Source of the DNA: an uncultured Candidatus Saccharibacteria bacterium | GTDB taxonomy: Bacteria; Patescibacteriota; Minisyncoccia; Phycocordibacterales; VMEP01 | DNA length: 64,000 nucleotides | Assembly (NCBI GenBank): GCA_964579635.1 | Contig: CAZOFV010000004.1 | Span: forward strand, 817 to 64,816 | Direction: 5' to 3' | In this document: one piece after another, positions 4,421 to 53,259 of the stretch | Layout of the letters: each line of letters starts with the position of its first letter | Position numbering within the stretch: position 1 is the stretch's first letter | The notes under the pieces: generated by a model | Told to the model about the DNA's origin: nothing | Databases searched by the model: none | Seen by the model: the letters and a program-made list of their open reading frames with translations, nothing else | Made by a program: the position numbers and the translations under genes

Positions 4421-5083
4421 TTACTTAAAAATCAAAATTGGCCAGTTTCTTTTTACCGCAATATTTCTTAAATTATTTGACGGGTTAACAACAAACGGGT
4501 GTTTAGCTAATTCTAACATGAAGATATCTGAAATGTGATCCCCGTATGCGTATACATTATCCAGTTCTATATTATTGTCTGATATATATTTTTTAATAAT
4601 ATTGCTTTTCTCAACACCATAAACAATTTGACCTTCAATTCTACCTGTAAGATTGCCGTCTTTTACCTCAAGGGTAGTCCCCTTAAAATCATCCACTGAA
4701 AGATATTCAGCAATTTTTTCCACCAAAATATCGACGGCGTTTGATATTAAAATTACGTGGAATTTCTTATCTTTTAGTTCATTAACTAATTTTATTCCAT
4801 CACTATAAAACCTATCTTTTAAGTCTTCGTTGAAAAACTCATTGATAATTTCTTTTACTTCTTGTTCTGACTTGCCACCAAAAAAGGAAAAAGCATATTC
4901 CATTATTTTTTTTGGGTTTTTTATAATATGTAATTTATACAAAACAAACCAAAAAATAATTTTAATGTAATAACAATTTTTAACGTACCCCTTTTTATAA
5001 ATAAATTTAAGCAAAGCTTCTTGGCTTTGACCTTTAATTAAAGTTCCATCAATATCAAAAACTGCTAAATTTTTTGTGGCCAT
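4421..5083 (-). CDS. HAD-superfamily hydrolase (HAD-IB / phosphoserine-phosphatase-like)
   Basis: N-terminal DIDGTL motif I, downstream YGDHISD motif, 220 aa. Confidence 0.6.
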   Translation of the reverse strand: MATKNLAVFDIDGTLIKGQSQEALLKFIYKKGYVKNCYYIKIIFWFVLYKLHIIKNPKKIMEYAFSFFGGKSEQEVKEIINEFFNEDLKDRFYSDGIKLVNELKDKKFHVILISNAVDILVEKIAEYLSVDDFKGTTLEVKDGNLTGRIEGQIVYGVEKSNIIKKYISDNNIELDNVYAYGDHISDIFMLELAKHPFVVNPSNNLRNIAVKRNWPILIFK

Positions 5084-21597: not shown

Positions 21598-23880
21598 CTA
21601 AAACTCCTCAACTCGAACCCTACAATCCACCCTACATCTCGCAGGATTCTCACCTTTAGAAGGTTGACAGATTCCATTACCACAAGAGGTGTTTGAACTA
21701 CAGGAAGCATTGATTCCTCCGTATTCGCCAGCACAAGTCCATGTCCATGAAGAAGGAGTTCCTCCTTCTGGTAAAAAGTTGGTATTTGATGGTAATACAG
21801 TAGGTCCTGGTAATCCAACTGTATTACAGAGATTTGATGTTGGTTTCTTTTGAGATGGTATCCCGTTGGCAGAACCGCAGACTCCATCTACTGGGTTATT
21901 AACATTTACTGTTATCGTGCGAGAAGGACAGTTGGTTGACCATAAGCCCATGTTGTCTTGAGCTCTAAAGTAGACAGTGTAGGTTCCAGCAGAAAAAGAT
22001 CTAACGAAACTTACCAAAGAACTAAGTAATGTTCCGGTAGAGCAGTTTCCACTTCTCCATTCATAACCAACAACTGTGCCATCTGCGTCTGTTGCTGATC
22101 CTGTAAACTGCTGGGTTTGATTTTCAAATATGGTGATATCGATTGCTGGGCTGACAATTGATGCGGTTGGTGGTGTAGCTGGGATACAAGAGCTGGTACT
22201 ACTTTGCCAGATGAATAGTGGTGCACAGGTATTACAGCTTACTGGGTTGTTTGCTCCGTTATTACATATTCCATTGGTACAGCCGCCATTACTACATGTA
22301 GCACAAGTGCTTCCATTCCAACCAAGTGGGGTAGAACAAGTGTTGCATGTTGGGTAGTTGTTTGCGCCATTTGAACAAGTTGGAGTAATTGTGAAAGAAC
22401 TGAATGGAGACCAACCGCTGTATAGTCCATTGGAGCTATTGTAAGCATATCCAGAAAGAGTGTTGCTGTTTATCGGTGAAGTGAAGTTTGTGTTGAAAGT
22501 TACGACGTAAGAGACAGTTCTAGTGTTTCCTGATACTGAAGTACTGCAAGACACGAGGTTGATATATTCTGGACCATAACCATTGTAGATTGTTGCAGAG
22601 CCACCACCAGAACAAGCTATTGGTGGTATTTTGTATAATCCTCCGAAGAAGGTAAATCCAATTGATGACCATCCTAGATATCCACGATAGTAACCAGCGT
22701 TCACTCCTTGGTAATTTACTAAAGCGAGTTCGTCGGTAATGAAGGAACCGCCGCCGTAGTTAGAAGCTGTTGAGGTAATGGTGTATTGATTGGTTGCGTT
22801 AGTTAGCACTGTACCACTACTGATAGTGACGTTTGTCATAGTTGGAAGAGGCGGAGATACTGTGAAGTTGGTTGTTGACCAACCAGAACCAGCCCAGACA
22901 GTGTTGTAGCAATATGCAGAAATAGTATGAGCTCCTGGACTAGTCATGGCTCCCGCATAATATGTTCCGGAGGTTGTGTATCCGGCGACTAAATATGTAG
23001 ACCAATCAAGTAGTAAATAACAGTAGTAGCCGTTTGTGGAGGAAAGAGTAAATCCTGGGTTGGCACCATAAGGTACTGGATTTTGCGAAACGGAAGCAGA
23101 TGCGGTGGGAGGATCATAGGTCCAGTAAACAACAACAACGCCCTGCGCGCCATCACCAGCGTAAGTGGGGGTCCCCCAGTCGCAGGTGGCGTTGGAGCCA
23201 AACACTTGGCTGGCAAACACTCCTCCTCCACCACCACCACCTCCTCCACCAGATTGTGGATAGACTAAAGGTGACCCACCACTCCATGCGCCACACGTGC
23301 ACGACGTCTCATTGCAATCATAAAGAAGGGTACAGGTTCCGGCGGTGGCCGCTGAGCCCCCAGCACCTCCAGCACCTCCAGAGCCACTAGCGCCACCGGC
23401 GCCACCAGTAGTTGCCCATCTACTTGGTGGCCAAGAACCATACGAACCGTAACTAGCTGTCCCGTAACCTCCATACCCCGGGGAACCGCCCGTCTGACCA
23501 CCGCCACCGCCATACGCAACCACTGGCCCAATAAGAGAATATCCACCATCACCACCAGGACTTGATGCACCAGACTCACAGTGGGGAGCACCGCCATGAA
23601 CACCGCCCGGGCCAACAGTAACCCAATAAGACTGACCACCTGTTACCGAAAAAGACCCGACACTATAACCTCCTCCTCCGCCACCAGCACCAGCACCTTC
23701 ATTGGTACCACCAGCACCAGCTCCACCACCACCAACTACTACTGCGGTTAGAGAAGACACTCCTGTTGGCACGGTAAAGGTCCCACTGCTAGTAAAAGTA
23801 TATGATTCGGCAAGTGAAATGCTCGGCATCACTGTGAGCAAAACTACTGCAACAATAACCGTAGAGATTATTTTTTTCAT
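21598..23880 (-). CDS. large secreted cell-surface protein with a polyglycine-rich N-domain, Cys-rich repeats, a PKD-like domain and a conserved Cys-containing C-terminal module
   Basis: Signal peptide MKKIISTVIVAVVLLTVMPSISLA. Gly-rich segment at aa about 40-250, including a G10 run. TCxxC-type Cys-rich repeats at aa about 500-555. PKD-like motif SATDADGTVVGYEWR. The C-terminal 200 aa are paralogous to the C-terminus of the 1122-aa neighbour. Confidence 0.8.
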   Translation of the reverse strand: MKKIISTVIVAVVLLTVMPSISLAESYTFTSSGTFTVPTGVSSLTAVVVGGGGAGAGGTNEGAGAGGGGGGYSVGSFSVTGGQSYWVTVGPGGVHGGAPHCESGASSPGGDGGYSLIGPVVAYGGGGGQTGGSPGYGGYGTASYGSYGSWPPSRWATTGGAGGASGSGGAGGAGGSAATAGTCTLLYDCNETSCTCGAWSGGSPLVYPQSGGGGGGGGGGVFASQVFGSNATCDWGTPTYAGDGAQGVVVVYWTYDPPTASASVSQNPVPYGANPGFTLSSTNGYYCYLLLDWSTYLVAGYTTSGTYYAGAMTSPGAHTISAYCYNTVWAGSGWSTTNFTVSPPLPTMTNVTISSGTVLTNATNQYTITSTASNYGGGSFITDELALVNYQGVNAGYYRGYLGWSSIGFTFFGGLYKIPPIACSGGGSATIYNGYGPEYINLVSCSTSVSGNTRTVSYVVTFNTNFTSPINSNTLSGYAYNSSNGLYSGWSPFSSFTITPTCSNGANNYPTCNTCSTPLGWNGSTCATCSNGGCTNGICNNGANNPVSCNTCAPLFIWQSSTSSCIPATPPTASIVSPAIDITIFENQTQQFTGSATDADGTVVGYEWRSGNCSTGTLLSSLVSFVRSFSAGTYTVYFRAQDNMGLWSTNCPSRTITVNVNNPVDGVCGSANGIPSQKKPTSNLCNTVGLPGPTVLPSNTNFLPEGGTPSSWTWTCAGEYGGINASCSSNTSCGNGICQPSKGENPARCRVDCRVRVEEF
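23221..23250 (-). repeat. in-frame (GGN)10 triplet repeat encoding a Gly10 run
   Basis: Plus strand reads tcctcctccaccaccaccacctcctccacc, which encodes GGGGGGGGGG (aa 211-220 of the 760-aa protein). Confidence 0.8.
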
Positions 23881-23943
23881 TTCATCTTTATATCACTCAA
23901 CATATTTTGACTATTCACAGATGCTTATCTTGATTGTTGTTTT

Positions 23944-45187: not shown

Positions 45188-46474
45188 TTATTTACGAATT
45201 TTATCCCTTAATTCACGGTGATACTTAATTGCAAATCTATGTGCCTCACTATTTGCAAGAAAAATCTGTCTTTCCTTACCTTTCCACATATCTATATCGC
45301 CAAAAATCTCTCGGGCACGATGTTTTTCGTCTTTAACAACTGAAACAATTCTGGTCTTAATATCCATCTCCTTTGCAATGCTATGCGCGATATTTAGCTG
45401 TGCACGCCCGCCATCTACAACAATAAGGTCAGGAAATTTCCATTCTCCGTGATTAAATCTACGCCTTAAAATTTCAGCCAAAGCACCAGTGTCATTCGCC
45501 TTCGAAAAACCACTTACTTTAAATTTACGATAGTCTGATTTTTTAACTTCCCCATTTTCAACCACCGTCATAACCCCAACCATTTGCTTCCCAGAAATAT
45601 GAGCAATGTCATATGCCTCAATCCTAAAAACATTTTCACTAAAAGCTTCCGGCTCGCGCTTAATTAAAGCGATGTCTTGAATATGTTCAAGAGAAAAAAG
45701 AATTTTCTTTAAGCGCTGAGCTTCTTCGAATTTCTGCTCTTTTGCCGACTGCTTCATATTCTTTTTAATCTCCGATAAAAGTGTTTTCTTCTTTCCCTCA
45801 AAAAATAATGAAAGAAGTTTAATGTGTTTTTTATAATCGACACTAGAAATTTCTCCAGTACACACGCCGGGACATAATCCAATTTGTCTCTCAAAGCAGG
45901 GTTTTAAATTTTTAGCCGATGGATTACATTTATCGCGAAATGGAAAAATCTTTCGTATTAATTTCATCGCGTCACGCAATGCTCCACCATTTGGAAATGG
46001 ACCAAAAACAGCACTCAGCTTAAAACTTTTAGCTTTTAATTCCTCAAAATCAATTTCCCTCTTTCTAATAACAAGAACTTTCGGGAAAAGCTCCTTGGTA
46101 ATAACAACGCAATTAAAGCTCTTATCATCTTTTTCTTTAGTGTTGTATTTTGGCTTCCATTTTTTAATTAAACTTGCTTCAAGTAAAAGTGCCTCAAGAA
46201 CTGAATCGGTAGTCTGCCAATCAATTTTACGCGCTTGCAAAACCATAGCGCCAATTTGTGCCCCACGCATTTTATTTAAATCTTTTGAAAAATAACTTCG
46301 CACACGTTCTTTAAGTGATGTTGCTTTGCCAATATATAAAACTTCGTTACGCACCCCTAAAAAGCGGTATATGCCTGGTTTTGTGGGTAGTTTAAATTTT
46401 GAAAAATCTTTAATGGTCATAAGTATTTTAGCGAACTCTATCCCGTACCAAGATAACTCGATACAGGGTTGCAA
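45188..46474 (-). CDS. uvrC: UvrC-like excinuclease subunit lacking the C-terminal (HhH)2 domain
   Basis: GIY-YIG domain (GIYRFLGVRNEVLYIGKA), Cys-cluster/UVR region and an RNase H-like endonuclease domain (…IEAYDIAHISGKQ…DGGRAQL…). Ends at 428 aa with no HhH. The start is probably the internal Met (MTIKDF…). Confidence 0.75.
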   Translation of the reverse strand: MQPCIELSWYGIEFAKILMTIKDFSKFKLPTKPGIYRFLGVRNEVLYIGKATSLKERVRSYFSKDLNKMRGAQIGAMVLQARKIDWQTTDSVLEALLLEASLIKKWKPKYNTKEKDDKSFNCVVITKELFPKVLVIRKREIDFEELKAKSFKLSAVFGPFPNGGALRDAMKLIRKIFPFRDKCNPSAKNLKPCFERQIGLCPGVCTGEISSVDYKKHIKLLSLFFEGKKKTLLSEIKKNMKQSAKEQKFEEAQRLKKILFSLEHIQDIALIKREPEAFSENVFRIEAYDIAHISGKQMVGVMTVVENGEVKKSDYRKFKVSGFSKANDTGALAEILRRRFNHGEWKFPDLIVVDGGRAQLNIAHSIAKEMDIKTRIVSVVKDEKHRAREIFGDIDMWKGKERQIFLANSEAHRFAIKYHRELRDKIRK

Positions 46475-46529
46475 TTTTGTAATTTGTATAGTATAGTATT
46501 AAACGGAAACGCTCAACTGAGCGTCGTTT

Positions 46530-46949
46530 TTGTTTCTAGTGAAAGGGCTCCTAATGAAAAAAATAGATTTCCGCGGTAGGGAGATAATCGCGTCATTCAT
46601 GGCTGAAATGGCTGAGAACAGTTGCCACGAGCTACACAAGCTCGCTTCCCTCTTTATTGAGGCGGAGATCAGTGCAATAAAAATCACCAGGGAAAGTGTT
46701 GAAATTTATTTCTCTGGGGAGGGTGACTCGATCTTCGTCTCGGCAGAAAATAACGATCAAATCAGAAAGTTATTCGGGGACGAATGCATCATCAGAAGCG
46801 AACACTTCTGGGCAACCATGGGGGAAATATGGGGGCAATATGAGTCAACTCACGTGAAAGCCACGAGAGAGCTCTGGGAAGAGTGGTGTCGGGTCATAAA
46901 CCCGTTCATACACAATGCAATTCCCGACGAGAAGAAACAAGCAGCTTAA
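46530..46949 (+). CDS. hypothetical protein of atypical (higher) GC
   Basis: 139-aa ORF with GC around 45% against a background in the low 30s. Probable start at MKKIDFRG…. No recognised family. A terminator follows. Confidence 0.4.
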   Translation: MFLVKGLLMKKIDFRGREIIASFMAEMAENSCHELHKLASLFIEAEISAIKITRESVEIYFSGEGDSIFVSAENNDQIRKLFGDECIIRSEHFWATMGEIWGQYESTHVKATRELWEEWCRVINPFIHNAIPDEKKQAA

Positions 46950-46974
46950 GGTTAAACACCTTCGGCAAAATACT

Positions 46975-47003
46975 GGGGCGGCGCTTATTGCGTCGCCCTT
47001 TTG
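46975..47003 (+). terminator. intrinsic terminator
   Basis: gggcggcgcTTATTGcgtcgccc followed by TTTTG. Confidence 0.5.
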
Positions 47004-47015
47004 CATTTATCTTTT

Positions 47016-49619
47016 CTAACCACGCAAAACTTTTTTCAAATATTTCCCTGTGTGGGATTTCGTACTATTTGCGATATCTTCCGGTGTCCCTTTAGCAACA
47101 AGATTACCACCACCATCTCCTCCTTCGGGTCCAAAATCTAAAACATAATCAGCGCTTTTTATAACATCCATATTATGCTCAATCACGACAACTGTATTAC
47201 CCTTATCAACAAGTTTTTGCAAAATTTCTATAAGCTTACGAACGTCTTCATAATGCAAACCAACGGTCGGTTCATCTAAAAGATAAATCGTTTTTTCAAC
47301 ATGTGGACGGTAAAGTTCTGATGATATTTTTACACGTTGCGCTTCACCACCAGAAAGAGTCGTTGCGGATTGTCCGAGCTCCAAATAACCCAACCCAACA
47401 TCAGAGAGTGTTTTTATTCTGTCGTAAATTGCTGGAATATCTTCAAAAAATGTAAGTGCTTCCTCAACCGTCATTTTTAAAATATCGTGGATATTTTTCT
47501 TTTTGTATTTAACGTGAAGGGTTTCTTTGTCGAATCTTTTACCATTACAAATATCACAAGTTACATAAACTGTAGGTAAAAAGTGCATTTCTACGGCGAT
47601 TTCTCCGTTTCCTTGGCACGCCTCACAACGTCCACCTTTCACGTTAAAAGAGAATCTGTTAGCTTTCCACCCTCGCGTGCGTGCCTCTTCTGTTGAAGCG
47701 AATAATTCGCGAATAAACGTAAATGAACCAGTATAAGTGGCTGGGTTTGACCTTGGTGTTCTCCCGATTGGAGATTGATTAATCATTATCACACGCGAAA
47801 GGTATTCTGTTCCAGTAAAACCAGAGCAGTTATAGATTTTATTACTTCGATAACGACGTTCAAGTCGCGCTTGTAGATTGCGATATAAAATTTCATAAAG
47901 GAAAGACGATTTTCCAGAGCCAGATACCCCTGTCACGATAGAAAGTCTGCCGAGCGGAACGTCAACATTAAGATTTTTTATATTAAAAACTTTTCCTCCA
48001 GCAATTCGAAGAGTTCCCTTGTCTTTATCTCGCCTCCCTTCTGGCACCTCAATTTTTATCTCACCACGAAGATATGCGAGTGTTAAAGATTTAGAATCAT
48101 TTTTCTTGGCAGTTAATAATTCCTCTAGATCGCCGGCAACAACAATATTCCCTCCATGGATTCCAGCACCTGGACCAATATCAACAAGGTAATCTGCAGA
48201 AAAAATAGTGTCTTCATCGTGCTCAACAACAATTATCGTGTTGCCCATATTACGCAAATCTTGAAGTGTTTTTATCAAACGATCATTGTCGCGTTGATGA
48301 AGCCCAATTGTTGGTTCATCAAGAACATATAGCGCCCCCACCAAACGAGAACCAAGCTGTGAGGCAAGTCTAATACGTTGTGCTTCGCCACCAGAAAGTG
48401 TATTAGCGCGACGATTAAGCGTTAGGTAATCAAGACCAACGTCGAGCATGAAAGTAAGTCTTGCTTCAATTTCTTTAAAAACAACGCTGGCAATATTTTT
48501 TTCTTTGGCTGTAAGCTTTAATCCTTTAACGAAATCATTCGCTTTCAAAATTGATAGATCGGTAAAATCAACTATATTCTTGCCGACCCCTTTTGGTCCA
48601 CCGATGTATACATTCAAAGCCTCCGGCCTCAAGCGCGCACCAGCACACGTATCACACGGCTCATCTCCAAACAAATGTTTAGTGCCTAAACCATTACACT
48701 TTGGGCAAGCCCCGTATGGCGAATTAAATGAAAATAATCTCGGTTCAATTTCTGGATAAGAAAATCCATCTTTAGGGCAAGAAAATCTAGCCGACATAAT
48801 AAACTCTTCACCTGAAACCACCCCCGAAACTAGTCCCTCTGATTCTAGAACAGCGCGCTCTATTGCTTCAGCAAGCCTTGTTTCTGCTTGTTTTTGATTA
48901 TCCTTAAATTCAACTACACCAATTTCATCTACAAGAACCTCGATTGTGTGTTTTTTTGTTTTTGAAAGCGCGATTCTCTCGCGAAGATTTTTTAATTCTC
49001 CGTCCACGCGCACTTTTGTATAACCACGAGAAAGAAGGTCGTAAAGCATTTGGTAATATTCCCCTTTTCTTCCACGCACGAGTGGTGAAAAAATCTGTAC
49101 AGTTGCATCACTATATTTAACACCTAAAACTTTTTTCTCTTTAAAATGAGTAGCTGTTTCTATTTTTTCAACAACAAAACTTACAATCTCCTCGGTTGTG
49201 AGTTTTTCAATTTTTTCTCCACAAACTAAGCAGTATGGTTTACCAATACGCGCATAAAGAACACGGAGATAGTCATATATTTCAGTAATAGTCGCGACTG
49301 TCGAACGAGGATTATTTGAGCGAGATTTTTGGTCAATTGAAATTGCAGGTGAAAGTCCAATTATCTCATCAACATCCGGCTTTTGCATTTGATGTAAAAA
49401 TTGTCGAGCATAAGCAGAAAGAGACTCAACATAACGACGTTGCCCTTCGGCAAAAATGGTATCAAAAGCAAGAGATGATTTACCTGAACCAGATAGCCCA
49501 GTAAAAACAACCATCTTATTACGTGGCATTTCAACAGTAACGTTTTTAAGATTATGAGTCCTCGCCCCTTTGACGATTATTTTACTTATCCCGTTTGAAT
49601 TTTCACTTTGTTTTGACAT
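47016..49619 (-). CDS. uvrA: excinuclease ABC subunit A
   Basis: Two ABC ATPase modules (Walker [13 protein letters not shown] and GVSGSGKSS) with Zn-finger CxxC pairs. 867 aa, somewhat shorter than typical. Confidence 0.9.
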
Positions 49620-49756
49620 AAAATTTATATGATGGTTTTGTCGAAAAATACCGCTTAAATACTTAAATCTGTGTCCCGAAAATTTCTAATGGGATCAATA
49701 TTTTTGTTTTCGTCTTTTTTCATATAGCAGGTTTTCTTGCCCCGTAGTCAGCTATG

Positions 49757-49835
49757 CCCCGTACTGAACTTGTTCTAGTACCGGGGTCGCTGTACTACTG
49801 GGGTTCATAATGACGCTAAAAACTACCCCGCGACC
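49757..49835. other. GC-rich nested-hairpin element in the uvrA upstream region
   Basis: ccccgtact/agtaccgggg stem (49757-49786) followed by the gtcgc…gcgac outer stem and the tgggg…cccc inner stem (49786-49834). Confidence 0.3.
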
Positions 49836-49879
49836 ATTCATAGGGGTATATATGAGTGAACTATATATGAATAAGATGT

Positions 49880-49908
49880 AAAAAACAAAGCCCCGAGAAG
49901 GGGCTTTG
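49880..49908 (-). terminator. intrinsic terminator downstream of the GC-rich orphan gene
   Basis: Minus-strand reading: aaagcccc-TTCTC-ggggcttt followed by GTTTTTT. Confidence 0.6.
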
Positions 49909-49930
49909 GCATTGCAACAACGAGAGAGAG

Positions 49931-50608
49931 CTACGGTCGAAGCCGGAGAAAAACGAGGCTACCAGCACGCCACCTGCCCGCCAGGGACACCTCTTCGGGG
50001 AGATATTCGTTTGTTTCCCACTCGTCAAAACCAGCTGTCTTCCAGTGGGCGCCAAAGATGAAAACTTCATCACTACCACCTCGAACGTGGAAGATGTTTG
50101 CTCTCCCGTTTATGGTAAGCGGTCCATCGTTCCCGTCAACCTGATTCTCAACAAGGACCGCAAAGTGGTACCACTCGGCAAGATCGTAGTCCTTGAGTTT
50201 TTCAACAATGTCTGACTCGTGAACATTGCGCATGAGACGAAAAACCTCAAAACTGGCCTCCGGCGCCGAATCAATTGCGCTAACAGACGGCAATATCCGG
50301 AAATCACAGCCGGCAGAATTTTTGAAAAACTCCTTCGGGTCCATGCGTTTCGTTATCGCCGGAACCGTTACTTCCGTAACGTAAATGAAATCCGCATCCA
50401 CCGGAATCGTTTTAGCGCTTCCGTTGTATAACATGTTGATTGCTTCGGCGACAGCGAGAGAGAGACGCTCCCCCTGGCTTGTGTGGTTAAGGATAACTTT
50501 CGGATCAAGACCTGTCAGTTTTATCGCCTTCGGCAAAGCGGGGCCAATTCCGCTCCCCAAAGTAGCAAATTGCCCGTTGGTACAAGAGGGTGTTCCATGA
50601 GAATCCAT
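49931..50608 (-). CDS. hypothetical protein encoded in a GC-rich islet between uvrA and uvrB
   Basis: 225-aa ORF with GC near 50% against a background in the low 30s. Its own terminator lies downstream and a 17-bp inverted repeat lies upstream. No recognised family. Confidence 0.5.
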   Translation of the reverse strand: MDSHGTPSCTNGQFATLGSGIGPALPKAIKLTGLDPKVILNHTSQGERLSLAVAEAINMLYNGSAKTIPVDADFIYVTEVTVPAITKRMDPKEFFKNSAGCDFRILPSVSAIDSAPEASFEVFRLMRNVHESDIVEKLKDYDLAEWYHFAVLVENQVDGNDGPLTINGRANIFHVRGGSDEVFIFGAHWKTAGFDEWETNEYLPEEVSLAGRWRAGSLVFLRLRP

Positions 50609-50657
50609 GGCTGTTCCTTTCGTGTAATTAATGCTGGAGGGTTCTTTCGTTGTGAAA

Positions 50658-50722
50658 GTTTACCACAGCTGGAAATGACTAGAACTATTTAGTAGATAGA
50701 GGCGCTTCCAGCTGTGGTAAAC
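50658..50722. repeat. perfect 17-bp inverted repeat with a 31-bp spacer
   Basis: gtttaccacagctggaa (50658-50674) versus ttccagctgtggtaaac (50706-50722). Confidence 0.8.
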
Positions 50723-50787
50723 AAGTAAGTAAAAGAACTAATTTCCTACTTATACATCAGCATAAATTTCTTTGCAATTCTTCCTTA

Positions 50788-52812
50788 TTATTCCCCTTTC
50801 TCTTCAAATTTTTTCTTAAGTAGTAATATCTCATCACGTAGAATTGCAGCGGCCTCGAAATCTAATTCTTTCACCGCAATACTCATTTCTTTTTCTTTTA
50901 ATTTAATAAGTTTCTTAGGATTTTTCTGAAAGATTTGTTCGTCTATACTTAAATTAAATCTAACAGACTTATCATGGTTGCTTTCCAAGTGTTCGGCAAT
51001 GTCGTGAATTTTCTTTTTTATTGTTGTTGGAGTAATGCCATGTTCTTTGTTGTAGGTAACTTGAATAACTCTACGGCGATTAGTTTCTCCAATAGCTTTC
51101 TTCATTGAGTCGGTTTCTACGTCGGCATAAAGAGTTACTCGTCCGGCAGAATTTCTAGCAGCACGTCCGATAGTTTGAATCAAAGAAACAGCTGAACGCA
51201 AAAATCCTTCTTTGTCGGCGTCTAAGATGCCGATAAAAGAAACTTCCGGTAAGTCCAAACCTTCACGTAGTAAGTTGACCCCAACCAAACAATCAAAAGT
51301 TCCACGACGAAATTCTGATAATATTTTAATTCGGTCGATTGTTTTAATGTCGCTATGTAAATATTCCGCCTTAATCCCTTGATCTTTTAGATACGTACTT
51401 AATTCTTCTGCCATTTTTTTAGTCAAAGTTGTTGCAATAGAACGCTCTCCTTTTGCAGTCACCTTCTTTGTTTCGGTCATAAAATCTTCAATCTGACCAC
51501 CATATACACCTTTTGCAGAAATTGGCCTTATTGTAATTTCAGGGTCAACCAACCCAGTTGGACGAATAATCTGCTCAACAATTTGTTCGCTTGTCGTCAT
51601 CTCAAGCTCACTCGGTGTTGCTGACGTATAAATCACTTCTCCTATACGTTCTTCAAATTCCTTAAAATTCAAAGGACGATTATCAACGGCAGACGGTAAG
51701 CGAAATCCGTGCTCAACAAGTGTTTTCTTTCGAGAAAAGTCCCCCGCCTGCATTCCGCGCAATTGTGGCAATGTCACATGAGATTCATCTATGATGGTCA
51801 AAAAATCTGGTTTCCCTTCTTTTGTTTTTGGAAAATAAGAAAGTAGTGTATCCGGCGCTGCCCCAGCTGGTCTTCCTGAAAGTGGCCTTGAATAGTTCTC
51901 AATTCCAGAACAATATCCAACCTCGCGAATCATCGCCATATCATAATTCGTTCGGCGCTTTAACCTATCTGCTTCAAGCAACTTTCCCTCTTTTTCAAAT
52001 TTTTTTAAAGTATCGGCTAATTCTTTTTTTATAATTTTTATTGCCCGTTCGCGCTGTGATTTTTCTGTAAGAAAATGTTTTGCCGGAAAAAGAAAAACAC
52101 TTTTTTCTTCACCAAGAATTTTTTGTGACACTGGATCAACAACAATAATATTTGATATTTTCCCATCATTAATATCAACATTCAAAACATATCTCTCAGA
52201 AACTGGCATTATTTCAACGCGCGAACCAATACTCCTAAATTCTCCAGGATTTATATCTGCATTTGTTCTTTCAAAGTGAATACTTATAAGACGCTTAATT
52301 AATTCTTGACGATTAGTGGAATCACCAACTTTAATTTCAAAATTCTCCTTACGATATTCTTCTGGGCTACCCAAACCATAAATACACGAGACAGAAGCAA
52401 CAATTATCACGTCGCGACGCGACATTAACGCCTGAGTGGAAGCATGCCTTAATCGATCTATCTCTTCGTTAATCTGAGCATCCTTTTCAATATATGTGTC
52501 TGTCACGGGCATATAAGCCTCTGGTTGATAGTAGTCGTAATAAGAAACAAAATAATGTACCGCATTCTCTGGGAAAAATTCTTTATACTCTTGCGCCAAC
52601 TGAGCAACCAGAGTTTTGTTGTGAGCAATCACAAGAGTTGGCTTACCCTCATTTGCAATTATGTTTGCCATCGTGAAGGTTTTTCCGGAGCCAGTCACAC
52701 CAAGCAAGGTCTGCTTCTTAAAGCCTTTTTTGAGACCCTTTGTAAGCGCAGAAATAGCCTTCGGCTGATCTCCGGCTGGAGTAAAATGTTTTGATAGTTT
52801 AAAAACTGACAT
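50788..52812 (-). CDS. uvrB: excinuclease ABC subunit B
   Basis: 674 aa with helicase motifs (GVTGSGKT, DESH), a beta-hairpin region and a C-terminal UVR domain (…ILRDEILLLKKK…). Confidence 0.95.
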   Translation of the reverse strand: MSVFKLSKHFTPAGDQPKAISALTKGLKKGFKKQTLLGVTGSGKTFTMANIIANEGKPTLVIAHNKTLVAQLAQEYKEFFPENAVHYFVSYYDYYQPEAYMPVTDTYIEKDAQINEEIDRLRHASTQALMSRRDVIIVASVSCIYGLGSPEEYRKENFEIKVGDSTNRQELIKRLISIHFERTNADINPGEFRSIGSRVEIMPVSERYVLNVDINDGKISNIIVVDPVSQKILGEEKSVFLFPAKHFLTEKSQRERAIKIIKKELADTLKKFEKEGKLLEADRLKRRTNYDMAMIREVGYCSGIENYSRPLSGRPAGAAPDTLLSYFPKTKEGKPDFLTIIDESHVTLPQLRGMQAGDFSRKKTLVEHGFRLPSAVDNRPLNFKEFEERIGEVIYTSATPSELEMTTSEQIVEQIIRPTGLVDPEITIRPISAKGVYGGQIEDFMTETKKVTAKGERSIATTLTKKMAEELSTYLKDQGIKAEYLHSDIKTIDRIKILSEFRRGTFDCLVGVNLLREGLDLPEVSFIGILDADKEGFLRSAVSLIQTIGRAARNSAGRVTLYADVETDSMKKAIGETNRRRVIQVTYNKEHGITPTTIKKKIHDIAEHLESNHDKSVRFNLSIDEQIFQKNPKKLIKLKEKEMSIAVKELDFEAAAILRDEILLLKKKFEEKGE

Positions 52813-52905: not shown

Positions 52906-53259
52906 TTAATCCCGAACGAGCGTAGTAATTAATTTTTGGAAGGGCCTATCCTTTGCTGATAGCGCAACATAGCCGACCAAAACATACGCAATGTGGGTAA
53001 ACAGAAATGATAAAAAACTCTGCGTCGTCATCATAATAATTAGACCTAAAGAAAAAGAAACAACAACGCTTAGTTTGGAAAAAGATTTTATCGGCAGCTT
53101 CCTTATCGGATTAAACCAAAGAACCGAAAGGAGAGAGTACGTGTAAAGAAACCTTACCCCATCTCCATCCGCCCAAAAAGTCGAAATGACGACAATCACG
53201 AGATGGGCTATCGTTTGAAAAACAACGGCAGACCACCACGTAAAACATAAGCGTGACAT
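52906..53259 (-). CDS. hypothetical small membrane protein
   Basis: 117 aa with three or four hydrophobic helices. Confidence 0.4.
   Translation of the reverse strand: MSRLCFTWWSAVVFQTIAHLVIVVISTFWADGDGVRFLYTYSLLSVLWFNPIRKLPIKSFSKLSVVVSFSLGLIIMMTTQSFLSFLFTHIAYVLVGYVALSAKDRPFQKLITTLVRD

Follow-up and report, generated by a model that had tools for sequence, protein, structure and literature searches.

The 64,000-nucleotide stretch of contig CAZOFV010000004.1 that we analyzed (hereafter the window) carries, between the repair genes uvrB and uvrA, a GC-rich islet with a single gene of 225 codons on the minus strand (hereafter gene X). We conclude that this islet is probably an anciently acquired, stand-alone cassette in a Parcubacteria genome, and that gene X is a fixed member of an unannotated protein family of the candidate phyla radiation (CPR) that is linked to diversity-generating retroelements (DGRs). 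A first-pass annotation of the sequence had listed the open reading frame (ORF), an intrinsic terminator behind it and a perfect 17-bp inverted repeat with a 31-nt spacer in front of it, and all three lie exactly where it placed them. The cassette and its gene are:

49869..50787, minus strand: whole cassette, ~919 bp, comprising a promoter-like site, a leader, the ORF and a terminator, delimited by alignment of occupied and empty sites
49931..50608, minus strand: gene X, an ORF of 225 aa

Gene X is a real coding gene. Its closest relatives are only four clusters, at 100, 85, 85 and 68% identity. The contigs of these clusters, together with two genome-collection matches (Parcubacteria group bacterium LiPW_30 and one further metagenome-assembled genome), gave six orthologous loci, and gene X always occupies the same position in them, in the order uvrB-X-uvrA. 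The LiPW_30 copy is 98% identical to that of the window and is deposited as TSC55039.1, 'hypothetical protein LiPW30_505'. Scanning metagenome contigs for further gene X loci produced nothing new, and a scan of IMG/VR produced no relative of gene X. All orthologues have exactly 225 codons with no indels, and the window and the 68% orthologue (L006) differ at 54, 30 and 108 sites at codon positions 1, 2 and 3, respectively. Because the differences fall mainly at third positions, in a 225-codon frame without indels, a non-coding RNA is ruled out. A GC-rich island in an AT-rich genome often turns out to be a structured RNA, and since the hairpins that flank gene X are real, the GC-rich stretch might be taken for a structured non-coding RNA with a spurious ORF. 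To this idea we give practically no credence, given the codon periodicity and the intact frame even at 68% identity, the protein homologues and the confident AlphaFold2 model described below, and the lack of a match to any Rfam family.

Gene X matched nothing in Pfam, NCBIfam, PADLOC (anti-phage defence) or PHROGs, profile searches of the PDB returned nothing related to gene X or meaningful, and none of 50 family members searched against Pfam contained a domain. When 1.84 billion cluster representatives were searched with a profile, a family of 186 proteins emerged at E <= 1e-3, which corresponds to at least 186 clusters at 50% identity; most members are 200–250 aa long, and homologues reach E 1e-34. 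The protein had earlier been described as belonging to no recognizable family. That description agrees with the database searches; the homology search placed the protein in this unannotated 186-cluster family. Matches cover residues 1–70, residues 72–220 or both, and from these separate match regions we read gene X as a fusion of two modules, an N-terminal helical module (~residues 1–65) and a C-terminal alpha/beta module (~residues 70–225). The protein has no transmembrane segment and no known domain. Tandem arrays of the C-terminal module exist as well, with five copies in P0011, for example. At locus L025 (843–4535), the gene for P0011 (926 aa), with its five tandem C-terminal domains, and the next gene, which encodes a family member of 215 aa, amount to a local expansion; the 5-kb contig carries no reverse transcriptase.

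The link to DGRs comes from two relatives of gene X. At locus L019, a bAvd gene (PF22296) and a reverse transcriptase gene (RVT_1, PF00078) come after the P0034 gene. A second copy of the final 116 nt of the P0034 gene, 78% identical, lies 465 nt downstream of them and upstream of avd, and 19 of the 26 mismatches fall at adenines of this downstream (template) copy. This template copy encodes an Asn-rich …VNVNWNDDGWNVNANLVENTNRWNTGNQVF… where the C-terminus of the protein reads …VSVGWGGDGWDVRADSVEDPDRWGAGFQVF…. The two repeats are a canonical template repeat and variable region, and L019 is a complete DGR. The second relative is the 90%-identity cluster P0027, in which residues 1–166 are identical in five full-length members while ~15 scattered positions within residues 167–197 are occupied by a wide range of residues; the W, A, V and G positions between them stay invariant as a scaffold. 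The alignments of gene X with P0034 (27% identity, BLASTP E 7e-20, residues 3–220) and with P0027 (32% identity, E 9e-21) both run through the variable regions. The alignments mark one segment of gene X:

49949..50062, minus strand: variable-region-equivalent segment, codons 183–220 of gene X, aligned with P0034 and P0027

By homology, then, gene X belongs to a family that contains DGR variable proteins. The two relatives show that the C-terminal ~40 residues of the family act as a DGR variable region in other members; nothing further on DGRs came from loci L024 and L025. The CPR is significantly enriched in DGRs, whose targets there usually have no recognizable domain, may hide new C-type-lectin variants and form an acknowledged blind spot (PMC8144416). 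Since CPR targets are described there as lacking a recognizable domain, the description fits the gene X family.

An AlphaFold2 model of gene X built from 141 sequences has a predicted local distance difference test score (pLDDT) of 89 and a predicted template modeling score (pTM) of 0.72; an earlier run with 4 sequences (pLDDT 35) was discarded. Residues 118–222 of the model form a strand, two helices, three strands, a short extra helix (204–210) and a final strand. Apart from the extra helix, this is the order of elements in the C-type-lectin core of DGR variable proteins, and in the variable proteins with that core the variable region spans strand 3 to strand 5.

Gene X is itself best described as a fixed family member, because no template repeat or reverse transcriptase was found nearby and its C-terminus is invariant. 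A blastn search for a template repeat found none in the 64-kb window, where only chance 11–19-mers were matched, and loci L001, L013 and L014 contained none either. The subset of window ORFs that was scanned with Pfam contained no DGR reverse transcriptase or Avd, and neither did the genes called in L001 and L022. The C-terminus is identical in P0001, P0155 and P0002 and has one change (T191P) in P0154, and substitutions between orthologues occur throughout the protein, without concentrating in codons 183–220. Remote targets have reportedly been described for CPR DGRs (Paul et al. 2017), and we considered whether gene X is an active target that a retroelement elsewhere in the genome diversifies in trans, which its full-length homology to the bona fide variable protein P0034 and to the hypervariable P0027 cluster would accommodate, as would the enrichment of DGRs in the CPR noted above. 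The conserved variable-region equivalent, the even spread of orthologue changes and the missing template-like copy and reverse transcriptase, in the sequences just listed, make such diversification very unlikely. By homology, gene X is most likely a binding protein, with a predicted binding surface at ~residues 183–220.

The composition of gene X sets it apart from its surroundings. Its GC content is 0.509, and its GC content at third codon positions (GC3) is 0.535; the window mean is 0.376 and uvrA and uvrB lie at 0.38–0.39, so that the background in the 'low 30s' reported earlier was too low. Across 57 window genes GC3 averages 0.29 (sd 0.06), and the only two outliers are gene X and an orphan gene at 46554–46949 (0.561); the anomaly of gene X is sharpest at third codon positions. 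Five other lineages, all metagenomic, carry the cassette at the same site with a GC content of 0.50–0.52 against 0.37–0.41 in the flanks. Beyond the orthologues, family members are GC-rich relative to their flanks in five of six other loci, and the member at L012 reaches a GC3 of 0.76 in a GC-rich CPR host.

Two relatives lack the gene. In L022 (Ca. Paceibacterota, GCA_041661305.1) and L023, both found through the second GC3-rich orphan (46554–46949), gene X is absent and the spacing between uvrB and uvrA is 192 bp, compared with 1,168 bp (49620–50787) in the window. Synteny is otherwise kept (tgt, a 117-aa gene, uvrB, uvrA, a 131-aa gene, uvrC, ddl), and gene order is shared from enolase to ddl. 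Alignment of the occupied and empty sites places the left edge of the cassette at the uvrB stop codon (50788–50790) and the right edge at ~49869, with homology to the empty site picking up at ATATATAGTT, from 49868 downward. These borders show neither a target-site duplication nor terminal inverted repeats. The flanking genes of the cluster are:

50788..52812, minus strand: uvrB (Pfam UvrB, UvrB_inter, Helicase_C, UVR)
47016..49619, minus strand: uvrA (Pfam UvrA_inter, ABC_tran)
45188-46474, minus strand: uvrC, in the same uvr cluster as uvrB and uvrA

The cassette has been in place for a long time. Compared with L001, the window has diverged at third positions by 0.227 in gene X, 0.219 in uvrB and 0.174 in uvrA. 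Gene X has thus diverged at silent sites about as much as the flanking uvr genes, which indicates that it was inherited along with them. At deeper distances the values are 0.48 for gene X (window versus L006) and 0.42–0.44 for uvrA and uvrB (window versus L022). At the protein level, gene X retains 84% identity to its L001 orthologue where UvrA and UvrB retain 98–99%, an evolutionary rate ~10x that of the two repair proteins. To judge from these divergences, the cassette is an old acquisition and not a recent one. When examined as a potential recent island, it has the atypical composition and the empty site, but no mobility gene, tRNA site or direct repeats, and the lineages that share it are as diverged in the cassette as in the flanks. 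A strong compositional anomaly can evidently outlast long residence, and a deviation in GC content alone is therefore not proof of recent transfer. The first-pass annotation had proposed a foreign cargo gene inserted between two repair genes: the foreign, inserted character is borne out by the composition, the self-contained layout and the empty site, while a recent insertion is contradicted by the five lineages that share it and their flank-like divergence. It had also held that the same gene at this place with similar GC content in all relatives would make the gene an ancestral resident; most relatives do carry it in this way, but L022 and L023 do not.

The flanks of L006 are closer to those of L022 than to those of the window. 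Most simply, the cassette was acquired once, in an ancestor of these lineages, and later lost in the L022 lineage; alternatively, the cassette may have been exchanged by homologous recombination through the flanks. In terminal lineages, gene X has undergone 14 GC-to-AT and 7 AT-to-GC changes, and the same count for uvrA as a control, a gene expected to be at equilibrium, gave 28 and 70, respectively, revealing a bias of the parsimony count toward AT-to-GC. Gene X loses GC relative to this control, which fits slow amelioration after arrival from a GC-richer donor. A first count of 22 GC-to-AT and 20 AT-to-GC changes had suggested that GC3 is held at equilibrium, an idea that we withdrew after the stricter count and the uvrA control. 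Separately, 6 of the 10 nucleotide differences between the window and LiPW_30 copies of gene X lie within 19 nt (50540–50557, codons 18–23). These codons read GSGIGP in the window, ASRIVT in LiPW_30, P0155 and L014, and ASRIIT or ASRVIT in more distant orthologues; the cluster could reflect local hypermutation, micro-conversion or an assembly artefact.

Homologues of gene X lie between prmC and prfA (L007, L012), beside rnhB (L021) and beside the L25 gene (L017), and because these contexts are unrelated, its place among the uvr genes is incidental. prmC and prfA are normally adjacent. At L007 (2861–4552) and L012 (334–1486), from two further CPR lineages, lone family members lie between them on the opposite strand, with non-coding spacers of ~470 bp on each side in L007 and ~250 bp in L012, the same pattern of a gene wedged into a housekeeping pair as in the window. 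These contexts also bear on whether gene X assists nucleotide excision repair as an accessory factor and owes its place beside uvrB and uvrA to that role. Nothing beyond its position in the uvrB-uvrA-uvrC cluster, kept in several lineages, speaks for such a role. Syntenic relatives have intact uvrB, uvrA and uvrC but no gene X, homologues live elsewhere, gene X has its own leader and terminator, and its protein evolves ~10x faster than UvrA and UvrB, all of which render a repair function highly improbable.

Upstream of gene X, the cassette encodes two adjoining hairpins:

50658..50722, minus strand: leader hairpin P1, a rod of ~65 nt whose base is the perfect 17-bp inverted repeat
50644..50657, minus strand: hairpin P2, UUUC-ACAAC-GAAA, directly 3' of P1 and invariant in orthologues

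The repeat consists of GTTTACCACAGCTGGAA at 50658–50674 and its reverse complement at 50706–50722, around the 31-nt spacer. It has only two matches in the window at <=3 mismatches, and two were reached in 0 of 100 shuffles. Orthologues keep all 17 pairs, four of them with compensatory double changes, and several pairs are G-U. A leader rod hairpin is also found at the distant homologues P0009 (L012, between prmC and prfA) and P0029 (L021, beside rnhB), whose basal stem shares the pattern TTT(N)RCC-RYR-GC with P1. In an alignment of six sequences, a small sample from three independent lineages, the resulting 18-bp helix is 97% paired with 8 compensatory pairs, a result matched by 0 of 500 shuffles and compared with 37–55% pairing in slid controls. 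P1 thus carries compensatory changes on the transcribed strand, as a structured cis-acting leader RNA would. The sense strand has 8 G-U cells compared with 3 A-C cells in this helix, proportions that would be inverted on the antisense strand, and this excess means that P1 is best read as RNA transcribed with gene X. Of the 18 stem pairs, seven are the same in all sequences, most clearly the block UU..CC...GC, a constancy that hints at sequence-specific recognition. Short hairpins of different sequence occupy the P2 position in L012 and L021, which is weak evidence for a conserved P2.

The inverted repeat had been put forward as an operator or a recombination remnant, and both are less likely than a transcribed 5'-leader RNA hairpin, considering that 8 of 18 pairs covary, that G-U pairs favor the sense strand and that the structure recurs at distant homologues. 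As for other copies of the repeat, the window has none at <=3 mismatches; what exists is the related stem in the leaders of P0009 and P0029. Against Rfam 15, only two tRNAs of the window reached threshold, and the region 46300–51000 gave only sub-threshold, microRNA-like hairpin matches. A covariance model of P1 (R1) found no further copy in the window or at other family loci, leaving three family lineages only, and P1 is a mark of a subset of the family.

Conserved hairpins beside a lone ORF could also mean that the cassette is a mobile unit, with the hairpins acting as DNA recombination signals (IS200/IS605-type, PATE-like or attC-like) or with spread by mRNA retrotransposition. Presence and absence at an otherwise identical locus, foreign composition, family members wedged singly between normally adjacent housekeeping genes (prfA, prmC), hairpins near both ends with neither target-site duplications nor terminal inverted repeats, and a stem sequence kept across hosts would all suit a mobile unit. 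No transposase, integrase or TnpB adjoins any copy, however, and the pairing asymmetry (8 G-U versus 3 A-C cells) points to sense-strand RNA; the stem is of the form GTTT...AAAC rather than attC RYYYAAC...GTTRRRY, the covariance model finds the hairpin in three family lineages only, and the flank-like divergence implies long vertical residence. We consider mobility unlikely. Decidedly unlikely, too, is a bolder version in which rod hairpin, ORF and terminator form a mobile CPR cassette whose hairpin is recognized as single-stranded DNA or RNA, possibly by a DGR-type reverse transcriptase that copies the entire mRNA; were it true, this mechanism would insert the cassette between housekeeping genes and create new DGR targets, built on a minimal scaffold for which Foldseek returned no solved structure.

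For an old, resident cassette, the remaining signals outline how gene X might be expressed:

50749..50777, minus strand: promoter-like site, TTGCAA-17 nt-TATAAG, from sequence and alignments
50615..50619, minus strand: Shine-Dalgarno sequence, AAGGA within AAAGGAACAGCCATG, in a context identical in the window, L006, L017 and L019
49880..49908, minus strand: intrinsic terminator, CAAAGCCCC-UUCUC-GGGGCUUUG followed by U6, which closes the cassette

The position of the promoter-like site is kept in orthologues (TTGACG-17/18-TATAAC in L006), and other family members have perfect TTGACA-17-TATAAT sites. The terminator begins 22 nt past the gene X stop codon and is kept in all orthologues; its stem runs from 49908 to 49886, with 9 pairs (6 of them G-C) and a 5-nt loop, and is followed by TTTTTT to 49880. 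We propose that gene X would be transcribed from its own, presumably weak promoter at 50749–50777, or by read-through from uvrB, which may contribute. The rod hairpin in the leader of the message would most likely serve message stabilization, processing or the binding of a regulator. Translation would start from the conserved, strong ribosome-binding site, and transcription would end at the intrinsic terminator, such that uvrA would be transcribed from its own upstream region.

Several points weigh against our interpretation. A Foldseek search with the confident model found no neighbor in the PDB or BFVD, including among the solved C-type-lectin DGR proteins, and the putative C-type-lectin fold of gene X is drawn from the order of secondary-structure elements, not from a three-dimensional comparison. 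The DGR link comes from two relatives at ~27–32% identity and not from gene X itself. Gain followed by loss in L022 and transfer by homologous recombination both fit the distribution of the cassette, and we infer both the direction of the event and its donor. The amelioration count draws on few sites, on parsimony and on a distant outgroup, with a visible bias in the uvrA control. Finally, the candidate -10 hexamer, TATAAG, does not have the usually invariant final T, and a consensus scan missed the site.

The rest of the spacer, between the cassette and uvrA, has a separate history and contains the following features:

49809..49868, minus strand: ancestral uvrA upstream region, ~60 nt, outside the cassette and also present in the empty-site loci L022 and L023
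49826-49846, minus strand: small hairpin, CCCUAUGA-AUGG-UCGCGGGG, within the conserved uvrA upstream region
49736..49803, minus strand: 68-nt palindromic insertion, in the window only, two bases past the ancestral uvrA ATG (49806-49808)
49620..49735, minus strand: second inserted stretch, ~115 bp, partly shared with L014 (about 4560–4745), adjoining the new uvrA ATG at 49617-49619

The small hairpin keeps its pairing at the empty site, where a U-G pair is replaced by U-A and an A-U pair by G-C, and it may be a leader element of uvrA. The 68-nt palindrome is nested, with CCCCAGTAGT...ACTACGGGG around CCCCGGTAC...GTACGGGG (-33.8 kcal/mol, z = -6.4). It is absent from L013, L014, L001, L003 and the 98%-identical LiPW_30 locus, has no second copy in the window or the fetched loci, and may be a miniature mobile element. 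In L014 the old uvrA frame meets a stop codon, so that uvrA must restart at the new ATG, as in the window; in both, the first ~12 uvrA codons have been replaced by the inserted stretch. The old start (MKKPEHKEID...) is retained in L001, L003 and L013. In all, ~190 bp of the spacer is recent and unrelated to the cassette.

Other features of the window bear on its composition and on the uvr cluster. The most GC-rich kilobase (up to 0.61), at 22851–23900, lies inside a minus-strand gene (21598–23880) whose 760-aa product has a glycine-rich domain (PF21722) and a bacterial Ig domain; a foreign origin for this segment was ruled out, since GC content is high at second codon positions and normal at third positions (GC3 0.34), and thus reflects amino-acid composition. 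The orphan at 46554–46949 (plus strand), which has the highest GC3 in the window, lies between uvrA and uvrC, encodes 131 aa and converges on uvrA. It comes with a TTGCAA-17-TATAGT site of its own, and the hairpin at 46975–46999 may terminate both this orphan and uvrA. Three protein clusters are known for this orphan, with no Pfam or PHROG match, and it is retained in L022 (GC3 0.53), a genome that lacks gene X. A second orphan, at 52906–53259 (minus strand), encodes a hydrophobic, membrane-like protein of 117 aa between tgt and uvrB and is also kept in L022; it has the third-highest GC3 of the window (0.42) and its own terminator (52872–52852). UvrC is short (428 aa, TTG start), with no C-terminal helix-hairpin-helix region detected, and UvrA has 867 aa. 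The sizes of both proteins are alike in L022 and are apparently typical of the clade.

These findings place what was a hypothetical protein in a CPR family that has remained unannotated, with no relative in Pfam, NCBIfam, PHROGs or the PDB. The family provides a small candidate hypervariation scaffold (~110 residues), backed by a confident model, and a natural contrast between its diversified members P0034 and P0027 and the fixed gene X. P1 is a candidate for a new cis-acting RNA motif tied to the gene X family.

Gene X resembles horizontally acquired single-gene islets (ORFans) in its GC and GC3, its presence and absence among relatives, its own expression signals and its fast evolution. It differs from them in being old, with lineages at 0.2–0.5 third-position divergence in step with the flanks, and in having no mobility gene, tRNA target or direct repeats. 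Like attC and IS200/IS605 units, the cassette combines an imperfect palindrome in the range of 60–95 nt with a single ORF and no terminal inverted repeats or target-site duplications. Integron attC sites, however, have boxes RYYYAAC ... GTTRRRY, and the cassette stem, GTTTACC...GGTAAAC, is the opposite; moreover, the cassette hairpin lies 5' of the ORF, and no integrase or TnpA lies near the loci examined.

Stem-loops in 5' untranslated regions, such as the ompA and ermC leaders and RNase III sites, stabilize or process bacterial mRNAs. P1 is like ompA- and ermC-type leaders in being a long, near-perfect helix between a promoter-like site and a ribosome-binding site. In contrast to these, it begins ~20 nt after the presumed transcript start rather than at the start, and several of its stem positions stay the same in distant hosts, suggesting sequence-specific recognition more than simple protection of a transcript end.

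DGR variable proteins that are active targets come with a template repeat, Avd, a reverse transcriptase and hypervariation; none of the first three was found near gene X in the sequences scanned, and its lineage shows no hypervariation. Neither sequence searches nor Foldseek related gene X to the solved C-type-lectin variable proteins, which come from other organisms (Mtd, TvpA, AvpA and TaqVP; PMC6328139), and formylglycine-generating enzyme (FGE)-type examples are much larger than its domain of ~110 residues, which has no inserts. With the variable proteins of CPR DGRs (DGR clade 2; Roux et al. 2021, PMC8144416), gene X shares the lack of a known domain, a modular architecture and homology.

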